Part shown: positions 4,553 through 47,457 of the stretch, in pieces
How positions within the stretch are numbered: the stretch's first letter is position 1
How the letters are laid out: each line of letters begins with the position of its first letter
DNA from: a virus
Lineage: Duplodnaviria; Caudoviricetes
Length of the DNA stretch: 64,000 nucleotides
IMG/VR virus record: IMGVR_UViG_3300024259_001623
Direction: 5' to 3' (one strand)
Position numbers and translations under genes: made by a program
Notes under the pieces: model-generated
Database searches by the model: none
Seen by the model: only the letters and a program-made list of their open reading frames with translations
Told to the model about the DNA's origin: nothing

Positions 4553-5104
4553 TTAGGACAGGGAGAGAATACGATCTTCCAATTCCTTAATCCTATCTTT
4601 CAGTTTCCTAATGAATAAATGATGAGTAGTATTTGTACATACTGCAAGATTCTCTATTCGATTATCATCTTTGATTCCATTTAGATGATGAATTATTTCG
4701 ATTTTTTTTAGTTTACGGCCTAAATGTTTTTCAATAATCCATCTATGCTGTAAAACAGTTTTTCCTCTTACAGTTGTAGAAAGATATCCTTTTCGATTAT
4801 GTTTCCATTCTCTTTCTTCTAATGGAACAATCTTTTTTTGTTTTCCTCTAGAGTGGTCATAACCGCATTTTTTAGAGCAAAATTTGCATTCACTATTATG
4901 TTTCTTAGCTTTTTCTATCTCAGACGGACTACGATAAAAAGTATTTCCACATTCCTTACATACAAAATTTATACCACTTTTGGGTCTTCCTAAGTCTTTG
5001 ATATACTCAGGGTTACCGTATTTCTTCCATTTTTGATAATGTTTAGTGCAATATCCTTTACAAAAACTTTTCCTATCACACTCTTTAACTTCACATATTT
5101 TCAT
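4553..5104 (-). CDS. HNH homing endonuclease with zinc fingers
   Basis: HRWIIEKHLGR...IHHLNGIKDDNRIENL HNH motif; N-terminal CxxC clusters. Confidence 0.9.
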   Translation of the reverse strand: MKICEVKECDRKSFCKGYCTKHYQKWKKYGNPEYIKDLGRPKSGINFVCKECGNTFYRSPSEIEKAKKHNSECKFCSKKCGYDHSRGKQKKIVPLEEREWKHNRKGYLSTTVRGKTVLQHRWIIEKHLGRKLKKIEIIHHLNGIKDDNRIENLAVCTNTTHHLFIRKLKDRIKELEDRILSLS

Positions 5105-6899: not shown

Positions 6900-6972
6900 T
6901 ACGCCCACCAGGACTCGAACCTGGAACCGCCACATTAAAAGTGTGATGCTCTGCCAATTGAGCTATAGGCGC
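6900..6972 (-). tRNA. tRNA-Lys(UUU)
   Basis: Canonical cloverleaf; anticodon loop CT TTT AA. Confidence 0.95.
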
Positions 6973-7067
6973 ATAAAGAACAAGAGGGCTTATCTTCCAG
7001 CCAGGATTACAACGTCAGTCAATCTAGCTCTTGTTCTCATTAGGAATTCAACATCAAACTACAGGGA

Positions 7068-7472
7068 TTACCAAGTAGACGGAATAGAGTTGGAAGACGC
7101 ATATGCCTTCTTATACTCAGCCGGCAACTCATCCCAAGGAACGATCTTATGCGTTTGCGTTTGTTCATCGTAATACTTGTACGTCTTTTCAGGGGTCTTT
7201 TTCTCATCTTCATACGAAACGGTGGGTATATTGATAGCTACCATTCCAGCAGGGGCCTCTTGTCCCATCGGACTATTCGGTTCCCTACGAGCAATGATAT
7301 TGGCAGTTTCGCCAAGGCCCATTGAATGAGTCACAGGAGCCTTCATAACCTCTAGGGTTGTAGAAGACGTAAAGGTGAGCCAGGCCCCTTTGCCTGTTTC
7401 AAGATGCGTACCGGCACAACCACCAAGAGCAATAGAGAACAAAACCATAGTGAGCATTGCAGAGCGTTTCAT
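7068..7472 (-). CDS. lipoprotein
   Basis: Signal peptide ending in lipobox LGGC. Confidence 0.75.
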   Translation of the reverse strand: MKRSAMLTMVLFSIALGGCAGTHLETGKGAWLTFTSSTTLEVMKAPVTHSMGLGETANIIARREPNSPMGQEAPAGMVAINIPTVSYEDEKKTPEKTYKYYDEQTQTHKIVPWDELPAEYKKAYASSNSIPSTW

Positions 7473-7535
7473 CGTTTTTCTCCTTCTATGAGCGATTGAC
7501 TCATGAGCATTTTACGAGTTATTGCAGGGATATGA

Positions 7536-7724
7536 TCAGCAGTCGCCTTTGTGTAGGTCCAATTTGGCCTTACGACGTTTTTTTCTGTTGGAAGGCTTTC
7601 CGCCCCAGGAATTGGAACGAAGTCGTCCTGACGCCCTTACAACGTCTAATTCGGCCTCTCTGGCCGCTCGACGCAGGGACTTGACCAATTTCTGCTGTTC
7701 CGTAAGTTTCTTTTTCTTAGCCAT
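7536..7724 (-). CDS. small, highly basic protein
   Basis: Lys/Arg-rich 62-aa ORF with AGGA RBS. Confidence 0.6.
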   Translation of the reverse strand: MAKKKKLTEQQKLVKSLRRAAREAELDVVRASGRLRSNSWGGKPSNRKKRRKAKLDLHKGDC

Positions 7725-8901: not shown

Positions 8902-9552
8902 TCAGGGAATCTTAAAATATGAGTCTGCCAACTCTTCTCTTGCTTTGTCGCAATTGTTATCATGTCTTTGAGAACATTTATCAGCCTCAAAATATTTCCA
9001 AATTACATGGATAGGCTCGAAAACCTTTCTTTCGACTAAACAAGTAGTAGCATAGCGATTATAACTATGATTGACAGTCATGAATTCAATCTTATCAAAG
9101 CCTCTCCAATCGCCAACTCCATTAGCAGTCCAACCAGTTGTAATAACAATTCCCCCATTTCTTACTAATCTAGGAAGAATCTGCTTGCATCTGACTATGG
9201 TATCTTGGAGTCTTGTACCTTTTTCCTTGACTTTATAAGCTTTGGCGTTTTGAGAAGCTGAGAAAGGTGGATCGAATATAACAACATCGGCCCTTACCCC
9301 TTGTTGATACAGAAACTCTAAGAAATCGGCAGCATCCATATGAAAAGCCGCATCTGTATCTCGGCTGATATCATTGGTGAAATTTGCCAATGTAGCATTT
9401 CTTGCGAAAGGATCTACAATAGTGGCATGAGGATTTGCGGAGATAGCTTCTGCGATATACCTACGCAGTAGTTCCCCAATAGGTTTGATCTTATGGACTT
9501 CTTTATTAGCAGGAGCCATATGATAACTTGTTGTAGGTATCTTAATTCGCAT
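8902..9552 (-). CDS. putative adenine-specific DNA methyltransferase
   Basis: IVDPFA motif I-like segment and VIFDPPFS motif IV. Confidence 0.75.
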   Translation of the reverse strand: MRIKIPTTSYHMAPANKEVHKIKPIGELLRRYIAEAISANPHATIVDPFARNATLANFTNDISRDTDAAFHMDAADFLEFLYQQGVRADVVIFDPPFSASQNAKAYKVKEKGTRLQDTIVRCKQILPRLVRNGGIVITTGWTANGVGDWRGFDKIEFMTVNHSYNRYATTCLVERKVFEPIHVIWKYFEADKCSQRHDNNCDKAREELADSYFKIP

Positions 9553-44425: not shown

Positions 44426-46096
44426 CTATATTTTACCGAGAATAAAATCGCTAACCATTTGAGGCGTTGCAGTATCGAAACCTACAACGTTCAACGAGTT
44501 ACGATCTTCGTTGTCAGTGATGCTATAAGGATTAGCTAACATACCACAAGCAATCATCTTAGCATCGTTTCTTCTTTTCTTACTGTCCCGATACAACTTC
44601 AAAGACCGATCTACATGAGTCTCGCCAGCCCAAGTCTCCATATCAGAGAGAATAACAAAAGCATCAACATCTACATTCTTACTCTTTGCCCAATTGGTAG
44701 CGATAGCTGCATCGGTGCCACCAAAGTTGCTCATCTGGGCCTTCTTCATTGCAGTCTGAATCGAATCCTTGGCAGTAATCTTCAAGTCTACCAAATTATG
44801 AGCGAAGCCCATGATATGATAGTTAGGTTCGGTTCTGGCAAAGACCATAGCCATTGCAGCAGCAGCAACGCAAGGACTCATATTACGGATACCAGATACT
44901 TCACCGCCAGCCATAGAACCAGAAACATCAACCGCCAAAAGGATATTCTTACCAGTTGGCTCAACATTCTTGAAGGACAGATAAAAAGCATCGTCCAACG
45001 CATCAAGAATCTGAGGAACTGGCTCATAACCTAACGAAGTAGGATAACCCCAATACGAATGGGTAAACTGATTGCTATAGGCACACATCGCTGCTAATAC
45101 GCTCAAAGGATGAATTCTGGCCTTATGCAACACTTCCTCATTTCTCAAAGTCTCACAAACATACTTTGTAGACGAGGATAGCGGAGTCAAAACGCCTGCC
45201 TTTGTCATATTACGGATATTACGAATCATAGCAGTCATTGGCATACCATCCAGCAATGCCTTCCATACCTTCTTATCATAAAGAGTATTAGGTACGCTCT
45301 CACGAACCAAACCATACTTCTTAATCATAGAAACCATTTCCTTGCTATCATCTACAGTCTTAGCAGTCTCATGTGCCCAGATATATCTAGTGGCATCATT
45401 CTTCTCCAACTTCGCAAACTGGACCTTGGTGAATCCCTTTCTTCCCTTAACGATATACTTCAAAACGGTTTGCATATCCTTACTACCGGGGATCAAGTGG
45501 ATTTTACGCAGCAAATCTCTATGCGACCAAGACGCTTCGCCTTCTACCTTACGCTGAGGATACTTACAAGCCTGGAATGCTACGGAATTAGGAGTCTTAC
45601 TGGTATACCAACTACCAATAGCCTTACGCAAACCTCTACCCCATCCTCTCATTTGGTCTACATAAGTCACGAAACTGAACAAATATGTTCCGATACGACA
45701 GACCTTGTTTAAGTTATCCAAAGCGTACTTACGAATCTCGTCATTATCGCAAGAAGCTGCTAAAGCCATAACAAAGATAGCAGGATCATTCTTGGCTGCA
45801 CGACCTTCATTAGAAACTGCGATAGTTTCGTCAATAGCAGCCATTCCGCCTTCGGTAGTCTTAAACAGCTTAGTTACATTCTTGGCGTTTTCCTTAGCGA
45901 ACTTTTTCTTACCAACATAAAAAGTTCCGCCATCAGAACCAAGAATTAAGAACCTACGAAGATGCTCTAACCGATCAACAGAATAAACATACCCACCGGC
46001 GTTATTCTTGACTTGACGCTTGTTCGCTCTCTGAGTCTGAGGAACGTCTACGTTACGTGAAGCTAAACCACTATCCTTAACAATATTCTTAGCCAT
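44426..46096 (-). CDS. rsr: Ro60/Rsr TROVE-domain RNA-binding protein
   Basis: NNAGGYV, RRFLILGSDGGTFY, MPMTAMIRN, RIHP, vWA MIDAS LAVDVSGSM, GGTD, DAFVILSDMETW, VVGFD. Confidence 0.96.
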   Translation of the reverse strand: MAKNIVKDSGLASRNVDVPQTQRANKRQVKNNAGGYVYSVDRLEHLRRFLILGSDGGTFYVGKKKFAKENAKNVTKLFKTTEGGMAAIDETIAVSNEGRAAKNDPAIFVMALAASCDNDEIRKYALDNLNKVCRIGTYLFSFVTYVDQMRGWGRGLRKAIGSWYTSKTPNSVAFQACKYPQRKVEGEASWSHRDLLRKIHLIPGSKDMQTVLKYIVKGRKGFTKVQFAKLEKNDATRYIWAHETAKTVDDSKEMVSMIKKYGLVRESVPNTLYDKKVWKALLDGMPMTAMIRNIRNMTKAGVLTPLSSSTKYVCETLRNEEVLHKARIHPLSVLAAMCAYSNQFTHSYWGYPTSLGYEPVPQILDALDDAFYLSFKNVEPTGKNILLAVDVSGSMAGGEVSGIRNMSPCVAAAAMAMVFARTEPNYHIMGFAHNLVDLKITAKDSIQTAMKKAQMSNFGGTDAAIATNWAKSKNVDVDAFVILSDMETWAGETHVDRSLKLYRDSKKRRNDAKMIACGMLANPYSITDNEDRNSLNVVGFDTATPQMVSDFILGKI

Positions 46097-46141: not shown

Positions 46142-46270
46142 ACTAGGTAAGTTAGTAGCATGGTTATATGCCCCCGTTCTATCATTAAACTATATCGCCG
46201 CTATTGCGACGACACCAGGAATCAAACCTGATTTTGGGGTTTATGGATAACCCAATGCCTTCGACCCAGT
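46142..46270 (-). ncRNA. yrlA: Y RNA 1 (YrlA-type, permuted tRNA domain)
   Basis: 5' ACTGGGTCGAAGG / 3' CTTACCTAGT Ro stem enclosing a T-arm, a loop-closed acceptor and a D-arm. Confidence 0.85.
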
Positions 46271-46290
46271 TATGTTCTTCTATATAAAAT

Positions 46291-46423
46291 ACTAGGTAAG
46301 TTATTAGTATGGTTGATATTACTGACGCTCTGCCGTTGAGCTATATACCGGCTTTGCCGATATAGCAGGATTCGAACCTACAACCTTCAGTTCCGGTTGA
46401 TAAACCAATACATTCGACCCAGT
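46291..46423 (-). ncRNA. yrlA: Y RNA 2 (YrlA-type)
   Basis: Same termini; GTAGG-TTCGAAT-CCTGC, acceptor closed by GGC-AAA-GCC, TAGCTCAACGGCAGAGC D-arm. Confidence 0.88.
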
Positions 46424-46461
46424 TATTTTCTTCTTTTTTATCCCTTATATTTTTATAAAAT

Positions 46462-46589
46462 ACTAGGTAAGTTGTTGGAATGGTATAATGCTCTGCCAAT
46501 TGAGCTATGTCGCTACATTGTAACGACAATGGGAATCGAACCCATAACCTTCTCATTAAAAGTGATAAACCATATCCATTCGACCCAGT
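46462..46589 (-). ncRNA. yrlA: Y RNA 3 (YrlA-type)
   Basis: Same termini; ATGGG-TTCGATT-CCCAT, TGTCG/CGACA, TAGCTCAATTGGCAGAGC. Confidence 0.88.
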
Positions 46590-46715
46590 TATTTTCTTTT
46601 AAAGCAAAAAATAAGTTGCCTAACAAATTAATATTAAGCAACTTATCCTTTTTTAAGCACCCGACGCCCTCTTACACCAATACATTTCCGAACGAGTCGT
46701 CACAGTTTATAAAAA

Positions 46716-46780
46716 AAGGCAAGTTAGTGTCAATAGCGTAGTGATCATTAAAAGTGATAAGCTATCGAAATTCGGCCCTT
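46716..46780 (-). ncRNA. Y RNA 4 (short)
   Basis: AAGGGCCGAA / ACTTGCCTT stem, TTATC motif, apical ATCA-CTTTTAA-TGAT hairpin. Confidence 0.7.
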
Positions 46781-46799
46781 TATTTTTCTATTTTATATA

Positions 46800-46879
46800 A
46801 AAGGATAAGTTTACGTTAATAGTTTTATTGGTTTTGATCTCTTAAATCATAATTGATAAACTATCAACTTCGACCCTTT
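46800..46879 (-). ncRNA. Y RNA 5 (short)
   Basis: AAAGGGTCGAAG / ACTTATCCTT stem, TTATC motif. Confidence 0.7.
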
Positions 46880-46976
46880 ACTTTCTAAGTTAATACCTAT
46901 TTTTTTATTTATAGGTCTTTTGACGTTAGGTATCAAACGCCCGGTAGCGAACCGGCTGACCTCCATTCTAAAACAA

Positions 46977-47042
46977 AAAGGCAAGTTATTATTAATAGTT
47001 ATTTTTATCCCTTTGATGATAAACTATTAAATTCGGCCCTTT
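46977..47042 (-). ncRNA. Y RNA 6 (short)
   Basis: AAAGGGCCGAA / ACTTGCCTTT stem, TTAATAGTT/AACTATTAA upper stem, TTATC motif. Confidence 0.7.
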
Positions 47043-47110
47043 AAAAAATCTCGGTTCCTACACCGTCATATAGACGGGAGAAGAAAATTCGAGATCATTT
47101 CTTCAAAAGA

Positions 47111-47282: not shown

Positions 47283-47379
47283 CGAAGACCGCTGGATTCG
47301 AACCAACAACCTCAAGGGCTAATCCTTAGTCCCAACAACCTTTTTTGCCCTTGCGCTCTGCCAATTGAGCTACATCTTC
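47283..47379 (-). ncRNA. tRNA-like RNA with an expanded anticodon loop
   Basis: Canonical D- and T-arms; 7-bp CAAGGGC/GCCCTTG stem closing a 27-nt loop. Confidence 0.65.
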
Positions 47380-47385
47380 TTATAA

Positions 47386-47452
47386 ATCGGATTAGGTTTG
47401 TCCGTAGGGGGCTTTCATTCTCTATATGATAACCTACAAACTTCGACCCGAT
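47386..47452 (-). ncRNA. Y RNA 7 (short)
   Basis: ATCGGGTCGAAG / ATCCGAT stem, TTATC motif, 5' end just downstream of the promoter. Confidence 0.65.
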
Positions 47453-47457
47453 GTTAT

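Follow-up and report, generated by a model that had tools for sequence, protein, structure and literature searches.

The function of the tRNA-like part of bacterial Y RNAs has been a question since 2014; in the published view these RNAs imitate the tRNA elbow and have no anticodon loop. The question takes a concrete form in a stretch of 64,000 nucleotides from a virus of the class Caudoviricetes (IMG/VR record IMGVR_UViG_3300024259_001623; hereafter the window). An earlier, sequence-only reading of this stretch noticed a short Y RNA displaying what looked like the anticodon loop of tRNA-Lys(UUU) and proposed that it might be a decoy for anticodon nucleases. Is the likeness a coincidence, a remnant of tRNA ancestry, or a part that some protein reads, and, if the last, would that protein be a nuclease?

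A Y RNA island precedes an intact Ro60 gene

The window encodes an intact Ro60 protein of 556 amino acid residues (44426..46096, minus strand), in which Pfam recognizes both the TROVE (PF05731) and the Ro60 vWA (PF25045) domains. A homologue search found thousands of relatives, the nearest of which (P0001) shares 78% identity, and this protein is the presumed partner of the Y RNAs. All genes in this region lie on the minus strand, and the Ro60 gene is preceded by a non-coding island of 1.4 kb. Seven elements in the island bear a Y RNA signature, which consists of a 5' strand GGG(U/C)CGAA, a complementary 3' strand CUU(A/G)CC, and the pentamer UUAUC located 9-10 nt after CGAA.

The seven elements, all on the minus strand, come in two sizes. 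Y RNAs 1-3 are YrlA-like, with a T arm, a loop-closed acceptor stem and a D arm all present, and Y RNAs 4-7 are short. In Y RNA 1 (46142-46271) and Y RNA 2 (46297-46424) UUAUC is present and no anticodon-like hairpin is seen. Three of the short elements, Y RNA 5 (46801-46880), Y RNA 6 (46977-47043) and Y RNA 7 (47384-47453), form an apical hairpin from UUAUC with a loop that differs from any genuine anticodon loop. The remaining two, Y RNA 3 (46463..46590) and Y RNA 4 (46716..46782), carry the Lys module described below.

Existing covariance models capture these RNAs poorly. Y RNAs 1-3 scored 17.6-29.7 bits with the Rfam YrlA model (RF02553), below its threshold of 69, and Y RNA 4, which has neither a T arm nor a D arm, did not match this model. 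With the nematode stem-bulge/Y RNA family (RF01656), Y RNAs 4, 5 and 7 scored 21-25 bits, again below threshold (38). A DNA search of deposited phage genomes with the island gave no match, and a promoter and terminator scan gave a site count not above that of shuffled sequence.

Two further features of the region should be mentioned. An RNA ligase gene, split by an intein, is found just upstream. The island also holds a tRNA-like RNA (47283-47379, minus strand) that scores 43 bits with the Rfam tRNA model and has a 31-nt insert at the expected site of the anticodon loop; it contains neither GNCGA nor UUAUC.

Y RNA 4 and Y RNA 3 carry the anticodon loop of the phage tRNA-Lys

Y RNA 4 is 67 nt long and lies 620 nt upstream of the Ro60 start, on the same strand. 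It consists of a lower bulged helix of the Ro-binding type, an 8-bp upper stem, a 23-nt apical loop and a 3' U-run. In the predicted folds the 5' GGGCCGAA strand of the bulged helix pairs with 3' CUUGCC, and the same helix is found in 33 aligned relatives. The apical region runs from UUAUC into AUCA / CUUUUAA / UGAU. This gives an anticodon-arm-like hairpin of 17 nt (46743..46759, minus strand) equivalent to tRNA positions 27-43, with a 7-nt loop at 46748-46754 and UUAUC (46756-46760) as its 5' strand.

The loop has U at position 33 and a purine at position 37, and it is identical to that of the phage's own tRNA-Lys(UUU) (6900..6972, minus strand; 67.9 bits with the Rfam tRNA model and also called by ARAGORN). 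In this tRNA the CUUUUAA loop is closed by CA/UG, and the same 11 nt occur in both Y RNA 3 and Y RNA 4; thus the earlier observation of a shared 7-nt loop holds, and the identity includes two closing pairs. The loop is also the commonest Lys loop among 499 tRNAs found by ARAGORN. Y RNA 3 contains the same 16 nt as Y RNA 4 at 46553-46568 (arm 46551-46567, loop 46556-46562), in agreement with the equivalent module that had been pointed out there. Two details of the sequence-only reading require revision. Y RNA 4 had been said to end in the Lys hairpin; the hairpin is present, but its position is apical and not terminal. The loops of Y RNAs 5 and 7 had been offered as support, and they do have U at loop position 2. 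The triplets that they would display are AAG and AGA, however, and they add nothing to the case because neither loop has a match in the ARAGORN reference set of 499 tRNAs.

In Y RNA 4, the hairpin forms four base pairs in both the minimum-energy and the centroid folds of the whole RNA (z = -1.98 relative to shuffled sequences). The arm comprises four A-U-rich pairs and a U-C mismatch, and the 23-nt tip, taken by itself, remains unfolded in silico. In Y RNA 3, pairing within the module is limited to UCA/UGA, and a competing hairpin wins in the minimum-energy fold. Formation of the arm would probably require stacking on the upper stem, a protein, or modification. Y RNA 4 does not form a cloverleaf, and the anticodon-arm-like hairpin is its only tRNA-like element.

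One of the 13 tRNA genes that ARAGORN called in the window is in fact Y RNA 3. ARAGORN reports a tRNA-Lys(UUU) at 46520-46593 (minus strand) within this element, and so does the Rfam tRNA model with an above-threshold score of 33.7 bits, because its arm, a 5-nt stretch resembling a variable loop and its T arm stand in tRNA register. We rejected Y RNA 3 as a real tRNA-Lys: the call is an artefact of its permuted tRNA-like body, in which the Ro-binding strand was taken for the acceptor and D arms. Nevertheless, the call shows that the hairpin occupies the tRNA register. Other Y RNAs, in L183 and L318, are likewise called as tRNAs, and counts of phage tRNAs are inflated because tRNA finders report some Y RNAs as tRNA-Lys and similar.

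A loop of such low complexity, on a short stem in an A+T-rich RNA, and with a likeness spotted after the fact, could equal a Lys anticodon loop by chance. Comparative data, presented in the next two sections, bear directly on this explanation.

The Lys module recurs beside Ro60 in distant lineages

An exact search of IMG/VR with the 16-nt module returned 60 loci, most of them coding or random sequence. Among them, L139/L188, L156, L180 and L183 have the module at the tip of a Y-RNA-type hairpin beside Ro60, on quite different stems. Extending the query to an 18-mer (the module and the preceding GG) gave 53 metagenome loci. Y RNAs account for 23 of them, some short and some YrlA-like, and in several of these cases Ro60 is on the same fragment. 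In GTDB genomes, taken as one per species, the module was found beside Ro60 in an Abditibacteriota chromosome (L351), an Abditibacterium MAG (L370), an Actinomycetota MAG (L333) and one further genome (L442). The neighbours checked in L351, L442 and the metagenome contig L315 are ordinary chromosomal genes coding for SIS-domain proteins, a family 20 glycosidase, a histidine kinase, an AraC regulator and a PhyH dioxygenase. A prophage origin of the bacterial matches was rejected on the basis of these housekeeping-type neighbours, and the module is therefore cellular as well as viral.

In an alignment of 33 short members the module is invariant and the upper stem covaries. All 16 nucleotides are identical across phyla, and the neighbouring stems have diverged completely. 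The closest Ro60 relatives that we compared (L002, L005, L008, L527, L528 and L531; 53-61% identity) give a different picture: they have Y RNA arrays that lack the exact Lys module, and the only near-copy among them, in L008, has A at position 32. Its presence is therefore not conserved from one orthologous position to the next. Conservation of the loop among homologues had been named in the sequence-only reading as a check, and its outcome is divided: the loop is exact in many distant Ro60-linked RNAs and not kept in the closest Ro60 relatives. Turnover among close relatives together with exact recurrence in distant lineages fits modular exchange or repeated selection and does not fit simple vertical conservation.

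Seven contigs (L139, L156, L188, L277, L296, L306 and L323) encode a distant Ro60 with 26-28% identity to that of the window, and several of them are labelled as giant-virus MAGs. In each of them a short Y RNA carries the exact Lys module and has a 5' strand of the GGUCUG type instead of the GNCGA type.

Pattern searches of this kind have their own sources of false matches. Our first scan, anchored on the 5' strand, yielded mostly chance matches among the matches listed. In 37 IMG/VR contigs (L445-L523, most from sample 3300045988), a conserved coding stretch matches the search pattern with the triplet GAG; this stretch is unrelated to Y RNAs.

Y RNA tips copy the loops of several tRNAs

When the triplet was left free in an IMG/VR scan, Y RNAs beside Ro60 displayed GUU at ten loci and UUU at two, and UAU, UCC, CGA, CCU, CAU, GCU and GCC occurred once each in the same frame. 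These flavours correspond to Asn, Lys, Ile, Gly, Ser, Arg and Met anticodons. Every triplet in this set occurs as a bacterial anticodon and none starts with A. U is found at position 36 in 14 of 17 of these Y RNAs, with the ten GUU cases possibly being a single lineage; counted in that way, a preference for U at this position is unconvincing.

Several of the above counts rest on pattern searches in which parts of the module were fixed. A further test used a sample that was not selected by loop, which combined 80 IMG/VR loci found via Ro60 with the loci of the closest Ro60 relatives and those matching the 5'-strand pattern. It contained 75 hairpins with a 7-nt loop beside UUAUC, and approximately 170,000 hairpins from the same loci served as background. 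The anticodon-loop frame H-U-NNN-R-N was found in 33 of the 75 (44%), compared to 10.9% of the background (p = 3e-13). Exact genuine anticodon loops, taken from a strict set of 73, were found in ten (13%), compared to 0.54% (p = 1e-11); this is an excess of about 25-fold, although independent events are fewer than loci because some lineages are related. Of the base pairs of the arm, 28-42 was seen in 28 of 35 hairpins (80%) and 27-43 in 46%; the three inner pairs had been required by the selection, so that only pair 28-42 counts as evidence.

The flavours seen in the loop-unselected Y RNAs are Lys-UUU, Lys-CUU, Asn, Thr, Ser-GCU, Ser-UGA, Phe, Leu-UAA and Pro, and the loop of the Pro flavour has G at position 37, as in real tRNA-Pro. 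A loop in L030, absent from the reference set, equals that of E. coli tRNA-Leu(UAG). Different stems can carry one and the same loop: there are four for the Lys loop and five for the Ser-GCU loop. Many other tips of UUAUC-type Y RNAs, including those of Y RNAs 5-7, are not anticodon-like.

A clear case of one scaffold with different anticodon flavours is seen in L254 (4815-4925), where two adjacent short Y RNAs present an Asn-GUU loop and a Pro-UGG loop (with G37) on the same UAUC/GAUA stem.

Both the enrichment and the repeated finding of the exact module in RNAs linked to Ro60 contradict a coincidence, which we consider very improbable. As a structural statement, the tip of Y RNA 4 is very likely a selected copy of a tRNA anticodon arm of the Lys (UUU) flavour. 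More generally, the data support well the existence of a class of Ro60-associated RNAs, widespread in phages and bacteria, in which UUAUC leads into a hairpin of 3-5 bp with a 7-nt loop copied from a specific tRNA.

The hairpin stands where a tRNA has its anticodon arm

In YrlA-like members, 10 nt lie between the loop and the T stem, which correspond to a stem strand of 5 nt followed by a 5-nt variable loop of the NGGUY type. RNAs of 123-145 nt found in L204, L250, L130, L030, L258 and L183 score 43-54 bits with the Rfam tRNA model. These chimeras have their parts in the normal tRNA order: the 7-bp acceptor stem is open, D and T arms are present, and a Ro-binding stem-loop of approximately 50 nt is placed between the D arm and the UUAUC-joined anticodon hairpin. 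Their coordinates are L204:4162-4285, L250:4548-4673, L130:3507-3629, L030:1067-1190 (minus strand), L258:4443-4565 and 4574-4701, and L183:8584-8713, 8952-9096 and 9234-9367 (minus strand). This layout identifies UUAUC and its hairpin as the anticodon arm.

The chimeras amount to a circular permutation of YrlA. Some of them have Ser-GCU, Lys, Thr, Cys or Phe anticodons, without the long variable arm that a real tRNA-Ser needs.

In long members such as Y RNA 3, the hairpin would occupy the very place of the anticodon arm within a tRNA-like body that is complete, and short members such as Y RNA 4 keep the arm alone. The claim that a Ro-tethered RNA displays a tRNA-Lys anticodon stem-loop, which is the structural half of the sequence-only reading, is supported, and it is broadened by the other flavours and by the register.

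The tRNA ancestry that these layouts reveal is also the basis of the main dull alternative, according to which the arm is a leftover with a purely structural role, retained as a stable U-turn cap or as an aid to maturation and stabilizing modification, and no partner reads the triplet. The chimeras in both topologies speak for a tRNA origin, many tips have drifted to loops not seen in tRNAs, and modules differ between close relatives. In addition, YrlA is a known substrate of tRNA modification enzymes (PMC4201824). Against this alternative, every base of the loop is identical across phyla while the stems have diverged, which is hard to obtain without selection on the loop sequence, and short Y RNAs retain the arm after loss of the remaining tRNA body. 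Weakened in particular by the loop identity, this explanation seems to us quite unlikely.

What might read the displayed loop

In the Ro60-Y RNA particles described so far, the lower helix of the Y RNA docks on Ro60 and the remainder recruits or gates a second factor, which in Deinococcus, Salmonella and a Thermus phage is PNPase (PMC4201824, PMC12135203). By analogy, we consider it on balance probable that Y RNA 4 is a true Y RNA of the short type, with its Lys anticodon-arm tip serving as a handle for a second factor. Its lower helix would dock on Ro60, and the tip, if folded in vivo as predicted, would be held by a protein that reads the anticodon loop of tRNA-Lys. Such a reader might be an anticodon nuclease, an enzyme modifying the anticodon loop, or an anticodon-binding domain of the lysyl-tRNA synthetase type, and it would either be tethered to Ro60 or be held off the real tRNA. 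For the class as a whole, the same reasoning predicts partners that read anticodons, namely nucleases, modification enzymes and synthetase-type domains.

One gene next to Ro60 in a close relative is of interest in this respect. Right after Ro60 in L002 (5722-6807; the same in L003), a gene encodes a class II synthetase-like protein of 361 residues with a PF01336 OB-fold anticodon-binding domain and a tRNA-synt_2 domain. L002 is the closest compared relative for which the DNA of the locus is available (Ro60 61% identical), and its synthetase-like protein is a candidate reader of anticodon arms. No counterpart of this gene was seen beside Ro60 in the window. Other relatives have a DUF4379 zinc-ribbon protein just downstream of Ro60 (L005, L008 and L527), an AbiTii-domain protein after Ro60 (L005, where 6983-7657 belongs to the same stretch), or ADP-ribosylglycohydrolase genes just upstream of Ro60 (L527 and L528).

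The original proposal was that the reader is an anticodon nuclease, with the RNA as bait or as a repair guide. Under this proposal, Y RNAs 3 and 4 would be decoys or baits for nucleases that cleave tRNA-Lys, of the PrrC, RloC and PARIS AriB types, and would either sequester the nuclease or, after being cleaved, report the damage to an RNA repair response. Several observations are in line with it. The loop of Y RNA 4 is that of a known nuclease target. The commonest flavours, Lys UUU and Asn GUU, and also Thr UGU, are the three targets of AriB, and the module keeps U36-A-A-U39, a named AriB determinant (bioRxiv 10.1101/2025.02.04.636281). Arrays hold several different flavours, as a set of baits would, and the RNA ligase gene of the phage is 1.2 kb away. 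In Salmonella, a single operon under the control of damaged tRNAs contains Ro60, Y RNAs and the RtcB ligase (PMC7790460).

At the same time, the proposal faces a number of difficulties. The same module is found beside Ro60 in ordinary bacterial chromosomes, and phage counter-defence is therefore not its general role. AriB needs contacts with the D loop, and Y RNA 4 has no D arm. AriB cuts at 40/41 with a preference for C40 and barely cuts a tRNA with G at position 40 (bioRxiv 10.1101/2025.02.04.636281), and it is G, not C, that the module has at this site. A decoy that can be cleaved is a poor inhibitor of a turnover enzyme, the isolated hairpin of Y RNA 4 is unstable, and close relatives of the phage do without the module. 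Taken together, we regard a decoy role of Y RNAs 3 and 4 as unlikely.

A broader version of the proposal applies to whole arrays. Ro60 particles of phages and bacteria might carry interchangeable anticodon-arm displays that act as baits, sensors or decoys against anticodon-directed nucleases, with each Y RNA in an array presenting the loop of one tRNA (Lys, Asn, Ser, Thr, Pro, Leu and others). We put this forward only tentatively and do not expect it to hold. If it did, the tRNA mimicry of bacterial Y RNAs would be tied to tRNA damage and repair, and if the partners were indeed anticodon nucleases, these particles would add a new layer to the tRNA conflicts between phages and hosts and among bacteria. 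The exact tRNA-specific loops provide a concrete grip on the tRNA mimicry of bacterial Y RNAs, since three bases can be swapped.

Comparison with known Ro60 RNAs and phage tRNAs

Full-text literature searches did not turn up any account of Y RNAs whose anticodon loops are those of specific tRNAs. As far as we found, the display of an anticodon arm by Ro60-linked RNAs has thus gone undescribed, within particles of Ro60 and Y RNA that are themselves well known.

Among the closest known systems are YrlA and YrlB with Rsr/Ro60 (PMC4201824; RF02553; 10.1101/312249). There too, the RNAs are encoded beside Ro60, often several per locus, with a GNCGA-type 5' strand in the bulged helix and a tip that is the effector module. 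One class combines T and D arms with an acceptor stem closed by a loop; the second consists of short hairpins. The published YrlA, however, has no anticodon loop (10.1101/312249): its anticodon stem runs on into the Ro-binding helix, whereas here the arm is a separate hairpin with a genuine 7-nt loop, joined by UUAUC, which is absent from the RF02553 consensus.

Phages are known to encode tRNAs that replace host tRNAs cut by nucleases, and these share with the RNAs described here that they are phage-encoded and carry the anticodon loops of Lys (and Asn, Thr), in their case within a conflict over the cleavage of tRNAs. They differ in being complete, in decoding and in escaping cleavage through positions 39 and 41; Y RNA 4 cannot decode.

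To our knowledge, no copy of an anticodon loop has been described for vertebrate Y RNAs or nematode stem-bulge RNAs. These share with the present RNAs a bulged helix of the GGUC(C)GA type and the UUAUC pentamer at the base of the loop; unlike them, they are eukaryotic Pol III transcripts, and the phage elements score below the threshold of RF01656.

A precedent for the arm itself is Yrn1 of Deinococcus radiodurans, for which a "potential anticodon arm" with a 5-bp stem in the anticodon position was noted (PMC4201824). The loop of Yrn1 has 6 nt, and the available part of that report claims no likeness to a tRNA loop, whereas the loops described here have 7 nt and match those of specific tRNAs exactly.
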